Below the pieces are notes generated by a model. The model was given only the letters and a program-made list of their open reading frames with translations, was not told where the DNA came from and made no database searches. Of a stretch of 64,000 nt of DNA, positions 9,188 to 19,975 are shown piece after piece (the first letter of the stretch is position 1; every line of letters begins with the position of its first letter). The translations under genes were made by a program, and so were the position numbers. The stretch is from Balamuthia mandrillaris (lineage: Eukaryota), in contig JAVKOQ020000001.1 in the NCBI GenBank assembly GCA_031835245.2, positions 558,001 through 622,000 on the forward strand, in the 5' to 3' direction.

Positions 9188-9405
9188 CTTCCTTTTTGTC
9201 TCTGCCTCTTTCTTTCTTTTTGTTTTATTATTTATACGTGTGATATATCTAATGAGGGCGGAGGGCTAGCGATGGCGGTGTTGCATGGGGGGACCACCTC
9301 TGCCATCCCACTCCCTTCTTGTTTGGTGTTGTTGCCATGCCTCAGCATGGATATAATACATTGGATGGTGTTACATAGTTGGTTGGAACGTGGCGGAGGC
9401 TGCTG

Positions 9406-11420
9406 CTAATCTTCGAAAGTGACCACGGGGGGTGGGCGGCCGTGCAGGCATCGCGGATCATGTATGCAGGCGCTCGTATCAAGGCAGTGGTTGTGCGAGC
9501 GGCTCACCTCTTGAGACTCGACGTGGAGATGAGCCCTGCGACAGCACTCCTTTCGTTTGCAGAGATGAGTTACTTCTTGCACAACCTCATCTTTTGCGGC
9601 ACAAAAGATAAGGTGAGTTCTCAGCATGAGAATGAGAGGAGAGACTGAGACTGGGAAACCAGAGAGAACAAGAAGGCTTGAAGATGAATACCATGTCTTG
9701 CAGCTGGTAAGAGGTAGCTCTCTCCATGCGCTACTATCACAGCCTGGTCGAGGGGAATGATTATTCCGTCGGTGATGTGGATGGTGGGATAAGCGTTCCG
9801 GGGTTGGGGAGCAGCTGCCAGACGGCATACCCCGTTGTGGTCCACTGCTTGGAGACGCCCTTCGCTTAGCCAAGCATTAAGCGTTCTCGATGTCTCCTCC
9901 AATGAGGCCTGGAGCGCATTGGTCATCGGCAACGTTGCCGGGCCAAAGCTGTCTCGGTTTCGTAAGACGATGACCTCTTCCATGAGTGCGCAGCGAATGC
10001 AAATTTGGAATCTTGGTGGAAGGGTTTCGAAAGGCAGGAGATAATATGTTTGACGGCCAGCCTTGAGCGTCTTACCGAATATATTTCCGTTACGAGAGCG
10101 GGTCAACTGGTGGGTGACGTTACCTCTGGTAACCGGCTCTGGTCGCCGGCGCCCACATTGTTGGAAATAGGCATCTCTTAGAGCGTTCAAGCTCCTCCAC
10201 ACTTCTTTTGAGCCAATGCTAGTCTCCTCGTTTGTGGCTGGCCACTTGAACAGCACCCATGCTGTCCAGACTCCCCCAGCCCATCGTAGATTTGTGTCTG
10301 GCATGAAGCCACTCCCAAGCAGAGGTGATGAATCTGAAGCAGATGAAGATGGAGAAGAACGTGGAGAAATAGATCTTGCAGCCGAGAGAGCTACAGCATG
10401 AGTAGTCTCAGCTGTGGTCGAAGGTGAATTAGAAGAAGCGGCTGGGCAAGCAGCAGCAGGAGAAGAAGAAGGCGATGAAGCAGAAGCACAAGAAGAAAAT
10501 GAGCAGCCAGATGTCCATAATAATAGTGGATCATCTTCGTCGTTTTCTTCTATCGCTTTTTTCAAAGGTGATGAAGAAGAAGAAGATGGAAATGAAAAAG
10601 AAGAAGAAGAAGAACAAGATGAAGATGAAGAACAAGAAGAAGAAGAAGAAGAACAAGAAGAACCAGAAATACAAGAGGACGGAAGGCTATGAGAAGGAAA
10701 GATTGGACAGGAGCATCTGCGTGCATATTCTTGAACTCGAGAAGGCATCAAAATTGAAACCAGGTCGCCTCGTACCAGTTCTTCTTGTCCGTCTCTCAAT
10801 TGCACCTTGAAATATAAGGAATCCTCGGTCTGTCCAGCCACCGCTTGAGCGTGATCGTTCAATATCCTTACTGCGTGCTTGTGTTCCATGGGACTGAGCG
10901 GTTTGTATGTTTCTTTAGTAGATTCGACTGGTATACCATTGCAAAGCTGAGAAAGGGAGTCAGCCTAACAAGCTAGAGGTTTAAAGAACAACGAAGACAA
11001 ACATGAATAGACCAAGGAAGAAAAATTTAAAATGAATGTAAGAAGGAAAGAATTCCAACCATCCTTCGGTGGAAGCGCCTCTGGTGTTATAGTTGTTTGT
11101 TTGGTTAATGGAGTTGTCTGTTTTTGAGGAACTGTTGTTATTGTGACTCTTTGCCTGTGTTTTGATGATATTCAGGGTGACCTGCGATCAGGGAAACACA
11201 GGCTTAGATAATAAGAACAGGACCAAATCGAAAACCACAAACAATACAACATTAAACATACACTAGAGTCAAAGTGGTGCAGTTCAGGTGGTTCCAACTT
11301 TGTAGGCTCGACTTTGAAGGACGCTTTGTTGCGTTTATTCCTCGGAGAGGCTTTCTCATCTTATTCGTCATCACTGTCCTCTATAACGATGATGTCCCTT
11401 TTTGTGTTCCGTTTATCCAT
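9406..11420 (-). pseudogene. Spliced gene (possibly inactivated) with chromo-like segments and a C-terminal His-Cys box (His-Me finger) endonuclease-like domain
   Basis: ORF 10889-9692 splices (intron 9691-9591, GT..AG, frame kept) to DEVVQEVTHLCKRKECCRRAHLHVESQEVSRSHNHCLDTSACIHDPRC; putative first exon from ATG 11420 has an in-frame TAA at 11363-11361; upstream exon boundaries uncertain. Confidence 0.7.
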
Positions 11421-11514
11421 CCCCTGCCCTCTCTCTTCAGTAGTCAATCGTTGTTGACAACAGAAACGAAACGACGCAGTGCTCTTAGAGTGGTCAAAAA
11501 TAAAACACAGAAGG

Positions 11515-11831
11515 TACACCGACTTTTACTCCTCTAAAGAGCACGCCACTAACGTTGGCACCATGTTCCGTGGAGCTGAGAACGCTCTTATGCCCAATTG
11601 GTACTTTTTTTTTGTAACATTAGTTATTTGTAGTAGCTACTGCCTGCTGTATAAATGACTTTACTTGCCTCTTATCACAGGCTTCACTTGCCAGTTGGTT
11701 ATCATGGCCGCGCCTCTTCTGTTGTGGTCAGCGGTACCCCTATTAGAAGACCTGTGGGACAGACAAGACCGCAAGATGACCAACCTCCTGTCTTTGGTCC
11801 CTGTAAATTGCTTGACTTTGAGCTGGAAATG
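11515..11831 (+). pseudogene. FAH: Internal fragment of fumarylacetoacetase (two exons and one intron)
   Basis: [29 protein letters not shown] | [35 protein letters not shown]; no N- or C-terminal FAH exons nearby. Confidence 0.9.
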
Positions 11832-11871
11832 GTATTTTTAAACCCTTTTCTTTCCTCTTGCTGCTCTCCCT

Positions 11872-11913
<42 letters not shown>

Positions 11914-12075
11914 GTATCCACGTTATAAGCATTTGGAGAGAACGTGCTTGTATGCAAGTTCCTTGCTCCTTGTGTTACGCTTGTGGATTAAAATGATGCA
12001 CCACGCTGGAGACCTTTACCAGGTCTTATCTGCTTCTCCACGGGAAATTTTTACTTTTGGAGATATGTTGTTCGA

Positions 12076-12371
12076 GCCCGACCATGCTCACCTGGTCCCA
12101 CTATCGCTTCAGGCAGAGGCTCCTCAACAAGGCCCAGCAATTTCCGTCCTGTACGGTCTGCCTCTGCGATGAGGAATACACCTCCAAGACCTGCGGCAAG
12201 TGCGGCCAAGTCCACCACCAGTTGGGGGGAAACAAGACCTTTCGGTGCCCCCAACCCGAGTGTGGCTACCAGGCGGATCGAGATGCCAACGCCGCCCGAA
12301 ACATCTTGATCCGCTTTTTCACTTTACAAGCACTTACCACCTCCTCCTCCTCCTCTGTGAGGGGGCGGTAG
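12076..12371 (+). mobile_element. 3' remnant of a Fanzor2/IS607-type TnpB gene (zinc finger plus RuvC-III)
   Basis: MLTWSHYRFRQRLLNKAQ..DEEYTSKTCGKCG..FRCPQPECGYQADRDANAARNIL; N-terminal part including RuvC-I/II is missing. Confidence 0.9.
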
Positions 12372-12547
12372 GCGGTAAGGTTGCTTTGGTGCCGGCACCG
12401 TTGCTTATAGCGAGTCGTAAGACAAGCCGTGATTAGGCACGCCGGAGGTGGTGGGTTATTTTTTGTTTCTCTGTTTTTTGTTTTCCTTTTACTAATTTTG
12501 CTTTATTTTCGTTGTCCCATGGATCGGCTTGATCTTGGCGCCGCCTT
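12361..12547 (+). ncRNA. Candidate Fanzor omegaRNA scaffold / element right end
   Basis: Directly 3' of the TnpB stop; complementary segments 12370-12376/12540-12546 and 12419-12429/12525-12536; palindrome GGTGCCGGCACC 12388-12399. Confidence 0.5.
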
Positions 12548-12710
12548 AGAAGGTACACAGAAAAAAGGAAAAGCAAAAGAGTTTTTAGGGAATCGAGCTG
12601 GGGCTATAAATGTCTCAAAGGCCATAGAGGTCGTGCTAAGAAAAAGGGGACACCCGCCAACCCCCTCCCCTTACCATTTGGCTCAATTAATTGGCCTTTT
12701 TTGGGCATTG

Positions 12711-14369
12711 TCACAAAGTCACCGCTTCGCAGCTGGCGGCAGGGCCTATGTCCAACACGGCGTAGCGTTTCTCGATGGAGGAAGAGCTGGAAGAAAGGAG
12801 ATCCACCAGATAGCGGCCCACCTCTTCATAGCTGCTCTCGGCAAGGGCAAGAATGGTTGATCCGCTTCCTGACAGACAAACTCCCAACAATCCTTGCGGC
12901 AGGGGGGAAGATGGGGAGGAACAAGGAGAGGAGAGAAGGTGGTTCAGAGCCAAGCAACGATCAAAGCCAGGAACTTGAATGGAGATACGGTAGGGTTGAT
13001 GGAGCTTGTCTTTAAGGCATTCACTGATGCGATGTCGGTCAAGGGAGCTCAATGCTGATACAAAGGAAACTGCCCTTTGCAGATTGTAAACCTGATTTTA
13101 CGTTAAAACGAGCGGGCAAACAAACGTTAGTATTGCTTAAAATGTAAGCCCTCTTTTTTCCTCTCTTCTTTTCTACTTTCAAGAAGAAAGAGAGAGAAAA
13201 AAAAGAAAGAGAAATAGCACATACCACATCCCCTCGAGGATAAGATGGAGGCAACGCTTTCCGCGCTTTGGCAGTTGATACTTCAAACTCTGGTATGATC
13301 ACAACTGCTTTCAACTCACGTTGCCTATCCTCCTTCGCCGCAACAGGAATGGCGTTACACCATACTCGACGTTTGCTCTTTTCATGACTGTCCTCCCTGT
13401 TGTTGTTGCTTTCTCCTTCTTCTGTCTCGACACAACAACATGAAACAACGCCGCCACACAAGCTTGCTCCAACGTTGTCGGGATGACCTTCTATCTCGGT
13501 GGCATATCGAAGCAGCTCCTCCCTTGACAGTCTGAGCTCCAGCAGCTCATTCGCAAGCAACACTCCCGCAACAGCAGCACTGCCGCTGCTGCCCAATCCT
13601 CTTGAGAAGGGGATCTCGTTGTGGATCTCAAGACGCACTTCTTCTAACATCTTTGGACGATGTTCTTGTTGTTGGATGACGTGAAGAGCGGAGGTCCAGA
13701 TGAGATTCGTTTCGTTCAAAGGAGCTGATTCTTGGCCTAAACCAGAGAAGCGAATGTCTAGCTTTGGTTGGTGTCTGCTGTGAGGTACTTGATTTAAGTC
13801 CGCCTGCTTTTTGTACGTGGCGGTCACTGTAACAGTTAGGAATAAACCCAGCGCCATTCCAAAAGTATCAAAGCCAGGCCCTTGTTTTATTTATAGTGTG
13901 AAGGTTAACATGAGAGAGAAACCAGGTTTTAAGGAAAACAAACCTAAATTGGCGGAAGAACCAGGAACTCGTATACGAAAATGTTTCACGTTGGCAGTAC
14001 TGCTGGACGAAGAAGCAGACAACTGCTCTTCCATTAACTGTTTGAGACGATCAGCATCCTTGTAAAGCTTATGAGCACGCGAGGGAAGATGCATGACTGC
14101 CTCCAATGCTGGTGGATTGGTTGGCTTGCAACCAATGGCCTTCTCCACTGCGTCGGGGAACTTTGCTGGATGGGCGGTGGCAAGACATATTATTGGTGTG
14201 TTTCTTGAGAGTATGTTCTCTTGAAGGAGTTGAATGGCAGCACTAACTCCCACAGCAGAGTGTGGGCAAAGCACATAAGAGTTCTGCTTATAAATTGAAG
14301 CAATTGTTCCCAGCGTTTGCGTTTCTTTTTTTATTTGTTTGTTTAAGGAGAAAGGTAAGGAGAAGGTAA

Positions 14370-14452
<83 letters not shown>

Positions 14453-14698
14453 GAAAGAGAGAGAGAGAGAGAGAGCAAATACCAGTGATAGCAAGCGCGG
14501 AGATCAGGGTGCGAGCACGTTCAAGGATCTGTGGTGAAACGGAAACCTTTCCGTTAGACTTGAATTCATTCATTACATCCTTGACCTGTTTGGCATCCTC
14601 TTGGCTCATGTGATACAGAAAACGTTCAAAGTTGCTGGCCACTAAACATAAAAACAAGATGCAACAAAGATTCCCAATTAAAATGACGCCCGAAATAT

Positions 14699-14740
<42 letters not shown>

Positions 14741-16041
14741 GAGAGGGAGAGAAACCTTGAATGTCCATGGAAGGAGTGATGGTTGGCTGCACTTCTTGTG
14801 CTGCATAAGTTCCAGTCTCAAAAAACCGGAACAAGATGCTTTCAAGTGAAGAGAGAGGAAGCAAAGAAGGAGAACGAACAGAGAGGTCAATGATGGCGCA
14901 ACATTAAGCGTAACAAAGTGCGTACTCGTTTTGGTTGGTGGCAACAATAAGCCGGTGAATAGGCAATCCCATTCTCTTGGCATAATAACCAGCAAGCACG
15001 TTACCAAAATTACCGGTGGGAACAGCAAAGCTTACTTTTCTCTTTTCTTTCTGGTCTACTACAGATGTGACCTTAACGTGAAATGATGAGAAACATGTTT
15101 GATAGGGAGAGAGAAGATGCTCACTTGAAAGTAACAGTAAAAATAGTAAACTATCTGAGCAAGAATGCGAGCCCAATTAATGCTGTTGATAGCGGCAAGA
15201 TTGTGCTTTCGTTTGAAGGCAAGATCGTTGAACACGGCCTTCACCATGTCTTGGCAATCATCAAATGTGCCTTCCACTGTGCATTTTTCATTTCAGAAAA
15301 CTTGGAGAACGAAAGAATGAAGCAGGGAAAGAATGAAGCAGAACAGCAAGAAGGTAGAGAGAACCAGAGAAGCGCAGAGTACACTGAAACAAAAAGAAAG
15401 CATGGAAGAAGCGAGACAAGAAAGAGCATACCAGCAACATTGTGAACGTTGTGATCAGGAATAGTCGTCATTTGCTTCTCCTGCACAAGGCTGACCCTGC
15501 CATGAGGGTGCAAGATGAACACCTCTATGTTCCTCTTCCCTCTCAAGCCAGCCAGAGCAGCACTGCCTGTGTCTCCAGAGGTAGCGCCCAAGATGGTAAT
15601 GTCCTTTCTCTCTTCCTCCTTGTCGTCGAGCAGGAGAAACTCGAACAAGTTGCCAAGGAACTGAAGTGCTACGTCTTTAAATGAGAACGTGGGGCCATGA
15701 AACAGCTCTCCAACATAAACCACTTCTCCCTCTGTTCCATCCATATCAGCGGTGATAGATCGAACGTTAACCACATCCCAGGTGCTGTAGCTCTTCTGGA
15801 GGAGGCGCCTCAGCTGCTCTGCGGGGACGTCGCTCTCATCCACAAAGAGGGACATAACGGCAAAGGCCAGCTCGGCGAAGGGAAGGTTCCTCCAGCGGGA
15901 GAGCTCCGTGGCAACCTCTGGCCAGCTCTCGGGGACGAAGAGGCCGCCGTCGTCGGCCAGCCCACGCAGCACCACCGTACGAAAGGACCTGCCTTGGTCT
16001 CCTCCTCGTGTGCTGTTGTAACGGATCCTTCGCCCAGACAT
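12711..16041 (-). CDS. Threonine synthase - homoserine kinase fusion protein
   Basis: ThrC: YNSTRGG, GLADDGGLFVP, ELFHGPTFSFKDVAL, ATSGDTGSAA, PTGNFGN, ATAHPAKF; runs in one exon into ThrB IRVPGSSANLG|PGFD, IPFSRGLGSSG, EGHPDNV, LSGSGST. Confidence 0.93.
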
Positions 16042-16130
16042 GACACTGTGTTTGCTGCTACCTTTTTTCGCGTGTGTTGCTCGCGCGTGTTGGTGGTGGT
16101 GGTGGTGGTGGTGGAGGTGGTACGTAAAAA

Positions 16131-17100
16131 CTACCAAAAAAAAAAAGCAAAGCGGAGCAAAGCAGAGAGGCGTGACAGCCCGCAACGCACCCACCACACC
16201 CCGCCCAACCCAACTATTTTTGTTCCTGTCTTCTTGTCGTCTCTTTCCTTTGATTTTTTGTGTGTCGACGAAAATCTGACGTCATCCACAACCTGCCGGT
16301 TCGGTTCGGGTAGTGGCAAGGGGAGGACGATGCCCGCAGCTCGGCATCCATTCTTGCCTTGCTGCTCTACGTGCTGGAGGGGTTCCCAATCATGTGTAGA
16401 TCTCCTTTCTGCAGCTCGGTTGTTCTCACCGAAGACTTTGCTCGCCCGTGGCTTCAGTAACGTCATCTTCACCTTTCGTCAACGATGGCAATACGCAAGC
16501 TTTTCCCGTTGTGCGCTGAAGATACTGAGCTGAAGAAGTGCCTTTGGTTGAACCGATAACTGTCGGAAGGAATCTGTGACATGCCTACAGGTAGGGTGTA
16601 TAGCCAACGGTAGACTTTCCACCACCTCCAACAACAAGTTCGTGAGGTGAAAGTTTCCTGTTTCCACGAACACTTGCAGCACGAACCTAAACCGAGCAAG
16701 AAAGTTCATGGGAAGACGTTGGCAGTAGGACACATGTTCACGGGCTTGAGTGAGGAAAGAGGAGGCCAGTTGAATGGCGAGGTCCGTCTCTCCTCGAAGG
16801 AGATGGCACTTGGCTTGCAAAGCCGTGATGGACAGGGAAGTGTAGAAGAGGTAGTAGTTGGGGAGCGGTGCATTGGTGCGGTTGAAGCTCTCTGCTTCCA
16901 CCAACAGCTGGGACATAGAAAGAAGCAATGAAGCTAAAATGTGTCTGGCTTCGTGGTCATATGTACAACGATCCACTTCATCTGTCTCTTCCTCCACTTC
17001 CGTTCGCAGCGAAGATGTAGATGAAGAAAATCCTGAAGCAGGTGGACAGGAGCGGGTTGAACCAGCGAGAGACACACAACAAAGGGCACATTGTGGTGGG
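16131..17100 (-). pseudogene. 5'-truncated, frameshifted paralog of the 17976-19975 gene
   Basis: LASLLLSMSQLLVE..YYLFYTSLSITALQAKCHLLRGETD..VFVETGNFHL..SFRQL is nearly identical to the neighbour; the N-terminal half is absent. Confidence 0.7.
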
Positions 17101-17975: not shown

Positions 17976-19975
17976 TCACTTTTTTACGAGACGGTTGAAT
18001 GAAGAAGCTCTGGCGAAAGTGTCGCCTTGGGGTTTCCACTCATACCAATGTTGCATACGTAGTCTCACAGGAGAGTTGGTCTTTTTCCGTTCTCGCACGG
18101 AAACTCCTACCTCTTGAAGAGCATCGTTGTCAGCATCAGCAGAGGTGACAATATTTCGGTGTGCATGTCTTCGTTCTCTTGTCCTAACTCCTGCCATTTC
18201 GGACAAAGGACTCTCCTCTCCTTCTTCATCTTGTCCTTCTTCTTGTTCTTCTGCTTCTTCTTGTTCTTCGTCTTCTTCTTCTTCTCGAAACTGTTGACGC
18301 TGAAGATTGCCATGTGATGGTTGCTGTTTGTCTAGTAGGTGTGTTTGCTTTGGTGCGTTGGGTTCGCTGTTGTGGAAGACAGTGTTAGACGTTGGGTGCC
18401 CCAGTAGCTGTCGAAAAGAGTCGATGATGAGACGACAAGTAGGATACAAGGACACGGACATACTCTCCACAACCTCCAACAACAAGTCCGTGAGGTGAAA
18501 GTTTCCTGTTTCCACGAACACTTGCAACACGCACCGAAACCGGGGAAGAAAGGTCATGGGCAGTAGGTGGCAAAAGGATACATGTCCACGGGCTAGGGTA
18601 AGGAAAGAGGAGGCCAGTTGAAGGGCTTGATCCGTCTCTCCTCGAAGAAGATGGCATTTGGCTTGTAGGGCCGTAATGGACAAGGAAGTGTAGAAGAGGT
18701 AATAGTCGGGGAGCGGTATACCGATGGAGGTAAAGTCTTCGACCTCCACCAACAGCTGGGACAACGAAAGAAGCAATGAAGCCAACGTACTTCTGGTTGT
18801 GAGATCGTGGGTGCAACTTTGCTCTTTATCTTCCTCTCCCATTGATATATCAGGGCACGAAGACGAAGAAGAGAGTGGTGAGGATGACGACGAGGATGAA
18901 CACCGTTCCACGAAGATGGAGGTGTAAGTAGCAATCTGGGTGAAGTGAGCAAAGTAGAGGATATGCTCAATGCAAAAGGGCAAAGGATAGGTATCGGCAT
19001 CGAATCCAAAGGCGTAGGCATAATCCTTTTGCACCTTCCAAAACGCCACAGAGTAACTTTCTCTTTCTTCTACTGAGAATAGGGGACAGTGGGCGTTGTA
19101 GATAAGACACACCAGGTTGGCATTACTATTCTGCCACCCTAACCGTTTGCAGATAGTGATGCAAAGGGTGCTGTAATAGGAAGCCTTGTGAAAGTCTCCC
19201 ACCGTCCACTTGTAGATCATCATTTGAGCGAGAGCCATTGCTACGGAGCAATCGCTCTGGTCGAACAGATAAGACATGTCCTCTCGTGCTGCAGCGAATA
19301 GGTCCTCTGCTGCTTTAGTTTCTCCCATATACAGCGCTCCTTATCCATTTTGGTTTGTTTGTTTGTTTGTTAGGTAAAAGAACAAGACAAGAAGAAGAAG
19401 CAGATGAAGAAGAAGAAGAAGAAGAAGAAGAAGAAGAACAAGAAGAAGAACAAGAAGAAGAAGAAGAAGAACAAGAAGAAGAAGAAGAAGAACCAGAAGA
19501 AGAAGAAGAAGAATAAGAAGAAGAAAAACAAGAACAAGAAGAAGAACAAGAACAAGAAGAACAAGAAGAAAGTAAGAAGAGAGCAGGTACCAAGGCAGAG
19601 GGTGATGTTCACGCACAAGGAGAGGCATGTGTGTTTTGCGGTAGGGTCACACGTGAGCAGCTGAACGGCAGAGGGCTGCATGGCAGCAGGATGTACCGGA
19701 ATAAACAGCCACAAACAGCTGCCAAAAGTCTGGAGGTAGCGGCCTCGCTGCTCCGCCAAGCACAGGTGCATGTCTTCGTTCCATATGTGCTGTCGGTAGG
19801 GAACCAGTTCGTCGACGCTACGCGTTGTTGTGTCACGCCGATTATCACGCTGCCGCTGGCGAGGAGAACCTCCTCCACCTTCTTGGGTCCGCCGTAGCAT
19901 ATGCTGGTGGAAACCCCAATCGGCCCTTCCATCCTGCCCTCTTCTTGTTCTTGGCAAGGCCTTCCAAACATGCAT
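17976..19975 (-). CDS. Hypothetical helical protein, weakly like the middle-homology region of fungal-type transcription factors
   Basis: Two exons (intron ~19589-19340 rich in CTT repeats): LCLG|ALYMGETKAAEDLFAAAREDMSYLFD; no intact Zn2Cys6 motif seen; start uncertain. Confidence 0.55.

Follow-up and report, generated by a model that had tools for sequence, protein, structure and literature searches.

What is a His-Cys box nuclease domain doing among the housekeeping genes of Balamuthia mandrillaris, and is it still a nuclease? The window, by which we mean the whole 64,000-nucleotide stretch of DNA analyzed here, is a gene-dense and intron-rich eukaryotic region whose housekeeping genes include those for carbamoyl-phosphate synthetase, TCTP, GTP cyclohydrolase, threonine synthase, and TruB. 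The His-Cys gene is encoded on the minus strand, flanked by the end of a homoserine kinase domain (12711) and the TruB start codon (9187), with an AATAAA signal (9224-9229, minus strand) 177 nt past its stop and ahead of the TruB start. On one strand (12711-16281, minus), a threonine synthase domain and the homoserine kinase (GHMP) domain stand in close succession and may belong to one fused gene. That His-Cys nucleases can move out of rDNA introns is known from KolobokP and from rDNA plasmid ORFs, and one old domestication into a DNA binder is represented by Smad MH1. A first-pass annotation had proposed that the gene at our locus is free-standing and encodes either a chromatin-targeted nuclease or a catalytically dead DNA binder. 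Its statement that there is no rDNA or group I intron here holds: Rfam returned 0 matches at gathering score over the whole 64 kb, so neither was detected, and the neighbors are housekeeping genes.

The last exon (9406-9590, minus strand) encodes the core of a His-Cys box (His-Me finger) domain. The proposed I-PpoI type of this exon is borne out by a Pfam match of the frame 9409-9876 to PF05551 (27.9 bits, E 3e-6, cutoff 27), which spans profile positions 60-114 of 131, and by an alignment with I-PpoI in which every Cys and His of the exon is in register. By itself, the 61-residue piece scores 24.1 bits against PF05551. In a PDB sequence search, I-PpoI accounts for the top three of five matches, each weak alone (E 0.2-0.27), and PHROGs and NCBIfam returned weak HNH rows alone. 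The exon also aligns with a His-Cys box protein from a viral contig (L001, described below), with 17 of 47 identities and a pairwise E of 2e-8. The exon shares with the I-PpoI/His-Cys box homing endonucleases (His-Me finger group 12, PF05551) the zinc-ligand pattern as well as the conserved non-zinc residues H98, E114, S115, and N123. The codon of the general base H98 is found at 9567-9565, within a THLC motif starting at 9570; seven zinc ligands (equivalents of C100/C105/H110 and C125/C132/H134/C138) are kept, and the exon finishes with C-x-H-x-x-x-C, as in the I-PpoI group, ahead of the stop at 9406.

The metal-binding position has changed. N119, described as the metal ligand of the His-Cys family in PMC5714182 and PMC9587614, is replaced by Ser (AGC at 9504-9502), as the first-pass annotation had noticed. 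Beyond that earlier account, we found His at the R122 position (CAC at 9495-9493) and Arg-Arg at the N107-P108 position (9540-9535), which places an Arg at P108. The codons for N119 and R122 are each one transition away from the consensus residue, and that for P108 is at least two changes away. That seven zinc ligands were spared while three non-zinc sites changed has a probability of 0.12 by chance, in a rough count that depends on our choice of conserved sites. According to PMC3597653, the N119A substitution abolishes cleavage by I-PpoI, and a fusion protein carrying it still targets rDNA; a role for Arg61 is described in PMC11325842. The N119A result and the differences at two further conserved sites make it unlikely that this copy is a chromatin-targeted nuclease, which leaves the catalytically dead DNA binder as the better of the two options originally proposed. 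By analogy with I-PpoI, where the data are for Ala and not for the Ser present here, we infer that the protein would cleave DNA little or not at all; since the metal-binding residue is absent, the product is predicted to bind rather than cut DNA. The gene descends from the I-PpoI group, yet unlike homing endonucleases of this group, which act as dimers on long homing sites, it lacks N119 and is not located in an rDNA group I intron.

What distinguishes the protein further from I-PpoI is an extension of about 340 N-terminal residues, for which no homologue was found. Most of it is encoded by a big exon (9692-10964, minus strand) of 424 open codons, with its first Met at 10889. None of 2000 shuffles was as open over these 424 codons, and 2 of 5000 were over the 206 codons that follow a Ser-rich linker; the exon is coding-like and no chance frame. 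The linker (10311-10700, minus strand) is a low-complexity, slippage-prone tract of 130 codons in which the frame has been kept. It separates two putative modules, with the peptides LYFKVQ...SRVQEY at 10817-10725 in module 1 and WVLFKW...DAYF at 10259-10164 in module 2. All peptides quoted in the first-pass annotation are indeed present on the minus strand.

Module 1 (10701-10904, minus strand) had been called chromo-shadow-like, and a lead in that direction comes from the ESM Atlas. In a search limited to named clusters, chromodomain clusters came first (score 0.84, 141 of 256 features shared), 10 of the 10 best family matches belong to one clan, and a chromo-shadow cluster appears at rank 18 (0.81); these scores serve as a lead only, since one shuffled protein in three also attains 0.8. 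Like the HP1-type chromo and chromo-shadow domains (PF00385, PF01393), module 1 is predicted to have a hairpin with two helices after it, and it has language-model neighbors in the chromo clan. Unlike HP1-type chromodomains, it has no Pfam match and no match to a profile made from five chromodomains, and its first strand is modeled as a helix in a single-sequence structure prediction (pLDDT 59.8, pTM 0.28). Regarding the absence of PF01393, the Pfam scan filters drop weak matches. PDB sequences gave no match to module 1 either. The chromodomain profile, which was built from the five of eight fetched loci carrying the KWKGY-type cage motif and scored 43-64 bits in leave-one-out controls, gave -2.1 and -1.1 bits for modules 1 and 2, values reached by 732 and 276 of 1000 shuffles, respectively. 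A profile-to-sequence comparison of the two modules with four chromodomains returned probabilities of 0.05 and 0.24 per cent. Six fold searches started from low-confidence models produced no hit with E <= 0.001 and none with Z >= 5; in the search with module 1, CHD1 chromodomains and the Rhino shadow domain were found at ranks 30 and 50 (E 1.6-1.9). What we take to be the aromatic cage residues of chromodomains are not evident in module 1. We consider a chromo-type fold for module 1 possible; if it has one, a shadow-like domain is more likely than a methyl-lysine reader.

Module 2 (10020-10292, minus strand) had been described as chromo-like, a proposal that received no support from the Atlas, the profile comparisons, or Pfam, and we now regard it as an orphan domain. 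It matched neither Pfam at cutoff nor any PDB sequence, and an ESM Atlas search with residues 215-425 of the big exon gave nothing (0.78). Together with the next 45 residues, module 2 is predicted to form a strand-helix-helix-strand-strand arrangement (model pLDDT 30-50; 36.6), an order of elements which by eye, and presumably, resembles a winged helix more than a chromodomain. The low-confidence model suggests that module 2 may be a DNA-binding, winged-helix-like domain. Modules 1 and 2 are not detectably repeats of each other. In the largely open-access literature covered, we found no report of a chromo-type domain joined to a His-Cys box, and the fusion here is itself putative.

It is likely that the gene originally began further upstream, at an ATG at 11420, an earlier start than the first-pass annotation had considered. 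The candidate first exon (11262-11420, minus strand) ends at a strong GTATGT donor. It would encode an acidic, SIM-like stretch and a basic, NLS-like stretch, which we assume to be typical of nuclear proteins. An in-frame TAA at 11363-11361, codon 20 from this ATG, interrupts it. A contig of a second sample, X13, which we guess to be RNA, covers 11304-11507 with 0 differences, and the TAA is therefore not an assembly error. Between the first and the big exon (10965-11261, minus strand), two candidate introns with inferred splice sites (11261-11182 and 11059-10965) flank a 122-nt candidate exon, which breaks the frame with the best-looking splice sites. One-intron routes that skip the TAA exist (four stop-free options), and we judged them unlikely, with introns of more than 400 nt and weak donors.

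The region upstream of this start appears to have been disturbed as well. An exact 11-nt direct repeat at 11509-11519 and 12548-12558, of a kind shared by 39 of 200000 random window pairs, brackets a likely inserted cassette of about 1.03 kb (11509-12558, plus strand), which starts 90 nt upstream of the ATG at 11420 and leaves the His-Cys gene outside. Its first part is a fragment of an FAH (fumarylacetoacetase) gene (11515-11839, plus strand; PF01557 18.5 bits, below cutoff). The fragment includes an 80-nt intron, whose retention implies that it was captured from DNA; spliced reads and a 1045-nt contig that diverges from the window further on suggest that an intact FAH gene is present elsewhere. 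A (CT)n microsatellite tract separates it from a 144-nt piece (11931-12074), which in three runs is covered by RNA to a depth of about 100-580. Many molecules end at 11931 and 12074 while most reads match only part of the piece, Rfam gave no credible match to it, and its minus strand folds with a z of -2.59; possibly, an abundant small RNA has been copied here. The cassette closes with the 3' end of a Fanzor/TnpB-family gene (about 12082-12550, plus strand; PF07282 65.7 bits, NCBIfam TnpB rows below cutoff), and the presence of other, longer copies elsewhere in the genome is indicated by its many variant letters and by loose ends at 12082 and 12549-12551. As a whole, the cassette has the look of an insertion that was templated from several fragments and duplicated its target site, and it would have landed in the promoter region of the His-Cys gene. 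Because the original first exons look damaged by the stop, the frame mismatch, and the insertion upstream, any protein would likely start at 10889.

RNA evidence was drawn from four runs, three of raw reads sampled at 3-5% and one contig set. Depth was 0 from 9335 to 10069 in all four runs, and no read crossed the 9691/9591 junction. TruB is also at depth 0 in three of the four, so that the blank over the nuclease exons carries little weight. A few read pairs map to the big exon and to exon 1 at depths of 0.1-1.8, near those of TruB; they may derive from DNA because the runs look unstranded.

Taken together, we tentatively favor the reading that the gene encodes a host-resident, likely non-cutting, zinc-stabilized DNA-binding protein. 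An ancestral His-Cys box would have escaped from a selfish element and then been kept by the host. Translation would start at 10889, and splicing at 9691/9591 would unite the nuclease fold from its two halves. This fold would be held by the zinc sites, and without N119 the catalytic metal would not be bound, while the front modules, which may be a chromo-shadow-like protein-binding domain and a winged helix, might tie the protein to chromatin in a repressor- or insulator-like manner. This reading draws on the sparing of seven zinc ligands and on the position of the lesions: both disabling lesions fall within the 5' 16% of the gene model, and the other 485 codons are open and free of them (0.026 if random, a rough count that rests on the inferred 5' exon model), a distribution that suggests constraint on the downstream part. 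It also draws on the few reads on the big exon and exon 1, on the Atlas lead for module 1, and on the precedent of Smad MH1, a dead endonuclease kept for DNA binding according to PMC5714182. The comparison with Smad MH1 (His-Me finger group 16 in that source) concerns a proposed likeness, namely an endonuclease fold that has lost catalysis and retained DNA binding. Smad MH1 lacks the catalytic His, whereas the gene here keeps it and has lost a metal ligand, and the Pfam scan of the last-exon protein has no match row for PF03165 (Smad MH1), so that we speak of an analogy and not of membership. Against a DNA binder, the retention of H98, E114, S115, and N123 together with the one-transition codons looks like a recent loss of activity rather than an old domestication. 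The lack of a junction read and of an orthologue, the putative identities of the chromo and winged-helix modules, and the inferred 5' model weigh against it too.

The same evidence can be read in another way, namely that the locus is a pseudogene in early decay, and this we regard as possible if somewhat doubtful. Here, a once-active, free-standing nuclease with accessory domains would have had its promoter severed by the insertion, with the remaining changes being neutral. The repeat-bracketed cassette 90 nt upstream, the TAA in exon 1 that recurs in X13, the phase mismatch of the 122-nt exon, and the single-transition changes at N119 and R122 next to an intact H98 and E114 are all in line with such a history, as is the lack of RNA over the nuclease exons, although that blank, given the TruB depths, is weak. 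A decaying gene would, however, have had to keep 485 codons open, including the slippage-prone 130-codon linker, as well as all seven zinc ligands of the last exon, and the P108 codon, with its two or more changes, indicates that drift would not have been only recent. The two outcomes differ in what the locus would mean. A young, host-style spliced gene that has kept the zinc scaffold, dropped the metal ligand, and possibly carries chromatin modules would, if real, be an intermediate in the transition from nuclease to DNA binder; a mere decaying orphan would be a minor example of homing-endonuclease debris.

The predicted 101-nt GT-AG intron (9591-9691, minus strand), proposed from composition and not seen in RNA, would join the big exon to the last exon in frame, and its removal yields an open 460-amino acid frame from the ATG at 10889. 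It is 69% pyrimidine, the highest among 26 in-frame GT-AG options, and resembles nearby RNA-seen introns in size and composition; we consider it plausible. Nearby introns seen in RNA have CAG at their 3' end, but this one has AAG. Spliceosomal introns inside His-Cys genes are known from myxomycetes, according to PMC9223047. As the last exon holds seven zinc ligands, the eighth must come from the upstream exon, and we found a candidate, by spacing only, in the Cys of a GVCRL motif (9833-9819), which would be equivalent to C41 and lies 53 residues before H98. Together with a helix and an R-x-x-Y-P motif (RNAYP, 9800-9786), this Cys, at about the expected spacing, makes it likely from sequence that 9692-9900 (minus strand) is the front half of the nuclease domain. 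The earlier claim that the general-base His and both zinc-ligand sets are kept therefore stands for H98 and seven ligands, and for the eighth it is a matter of spacing. By eye, the upstream half resembles L001, the one natural His-Cys protein available for comparison, but 280 of 2000 shuffles of this half score as well against it. A PDB sequence search with the piece containing the candidate ligand gave no match. That the His-Cys exon is instead a separate relic behind an unrelated orphan gene, unspliced to the big exon, we consider quite improbable: the AAG acceptor, the missing junction reads, and an upstream half that adds no significant score would fit it, but the last exon covers only positions 60-114 of the 131-position profile and lacks its own start codon, and the upstream Cys and R-x-x-Y-P motif and the intron-like character of the intervening 101 nt argue the other way.

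We then asked whether the gene belongs to a wider family or to a mobile element. No orthologue was found in the sequence libraries searched. Word-index searches confirmed 0 of 7985 candidates for the whole big exon and 0 of 672 for residues 218-424, and gave no candidate for the last exon among longer proteins. The middle part of the protein has no homologue among 1.84 billion representatives; the single phmmer match over this set (E 6.7e-4), a 718-residue tandem-repeat shrimp protein, we judged spurious. Scans of contigs from metagenomes and prokaryote genomes left no locus, nor did viral contig scans, in which one confirmed stretch was reported without a locus. These homologue blanks weigh little because the contig and genome libraries searched hold few eukaryotic genes. 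Motif scans for further His-Cys proteins returned the same single viral contig each time, a 28-kb contig that encodes a free-standing His-Cys box protein (L001:814-1572, minus strand; PF05551 40.5 bits), the sole motif match in the viral collection. L001, too, carries PF05551 in a plain ORF and has a long N-terminal extension; its extension is basic and differs from the one here, and L001 has kept the Asn and the Arg.

His-Cys genes outside group I introns are already in print, as KolobokP (PMC9587614) and on Naegleria rDNA plasmids (PMC12482156). The Naegleria plasmid ORFs likewise carry PF05551 in a plain ORF but are rDNA-linked, and the available text reports no chromo-like module in them. 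The His-Me finger nuclease of KolobokP is similarly an I-PpoI-like gene outside rDNA. KolobokP elements, as described in PMC9587614, encode a DDD/E transposase next to the nuclease and are bounded by long terminal direct repeats that have short inverted ends, neither of which was found at the His-Cys gene, and their nucleases, reported from animals, keep H98, H110, and N119, the last of which is missing here. The first-pass annotation had proposed an undescribed mobile-element or genome-defense family, and nothing points to a mobile element that carries the gene: a Pfam scan that covered 114 of the 130 window ORFs of at least 120 residues revealed no transposase family, nor did one of 8 proteins, no long terminal repeats surround the His-Cys gene, and the window holds no second copy of it. 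That the gene encodes an active nuclease, targeted to chromatin and belonging to an undescribed mobile element or defense system, in which the Ser or a water-bridged neighbor would serve the metal, is very improbable, for while the general-base His and E114 are kept, module 1 has its chromo lead, and KolobokP sets a precedent for such nucleases in DNA transposons (PMC9587614), the metal ligand is lost, the mobile-element features just listed are missing from the window, and module 1 has no canonical chromodomain sequence (732 of 1000 shuffles scoring equally).

A bolder idea, and in our view a long shot, is that the genome holds a family of His-Cys nucleases with a chromo-fold and a winged helix, which would read chromatin and cut or guard DNA, with this copy recently disarmed and active relatives elsewhere. 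If true, rDNA homing endonucleases would have given rise to a chromatin-guided descendant, caught in the course of a domestication separate from that of Smad MH1. Separately, in window ORFs that have no Pfam match, we observed a 324-nt direct duplication (16614-16937 and 18462-18785) with 84% identity between the two copies.
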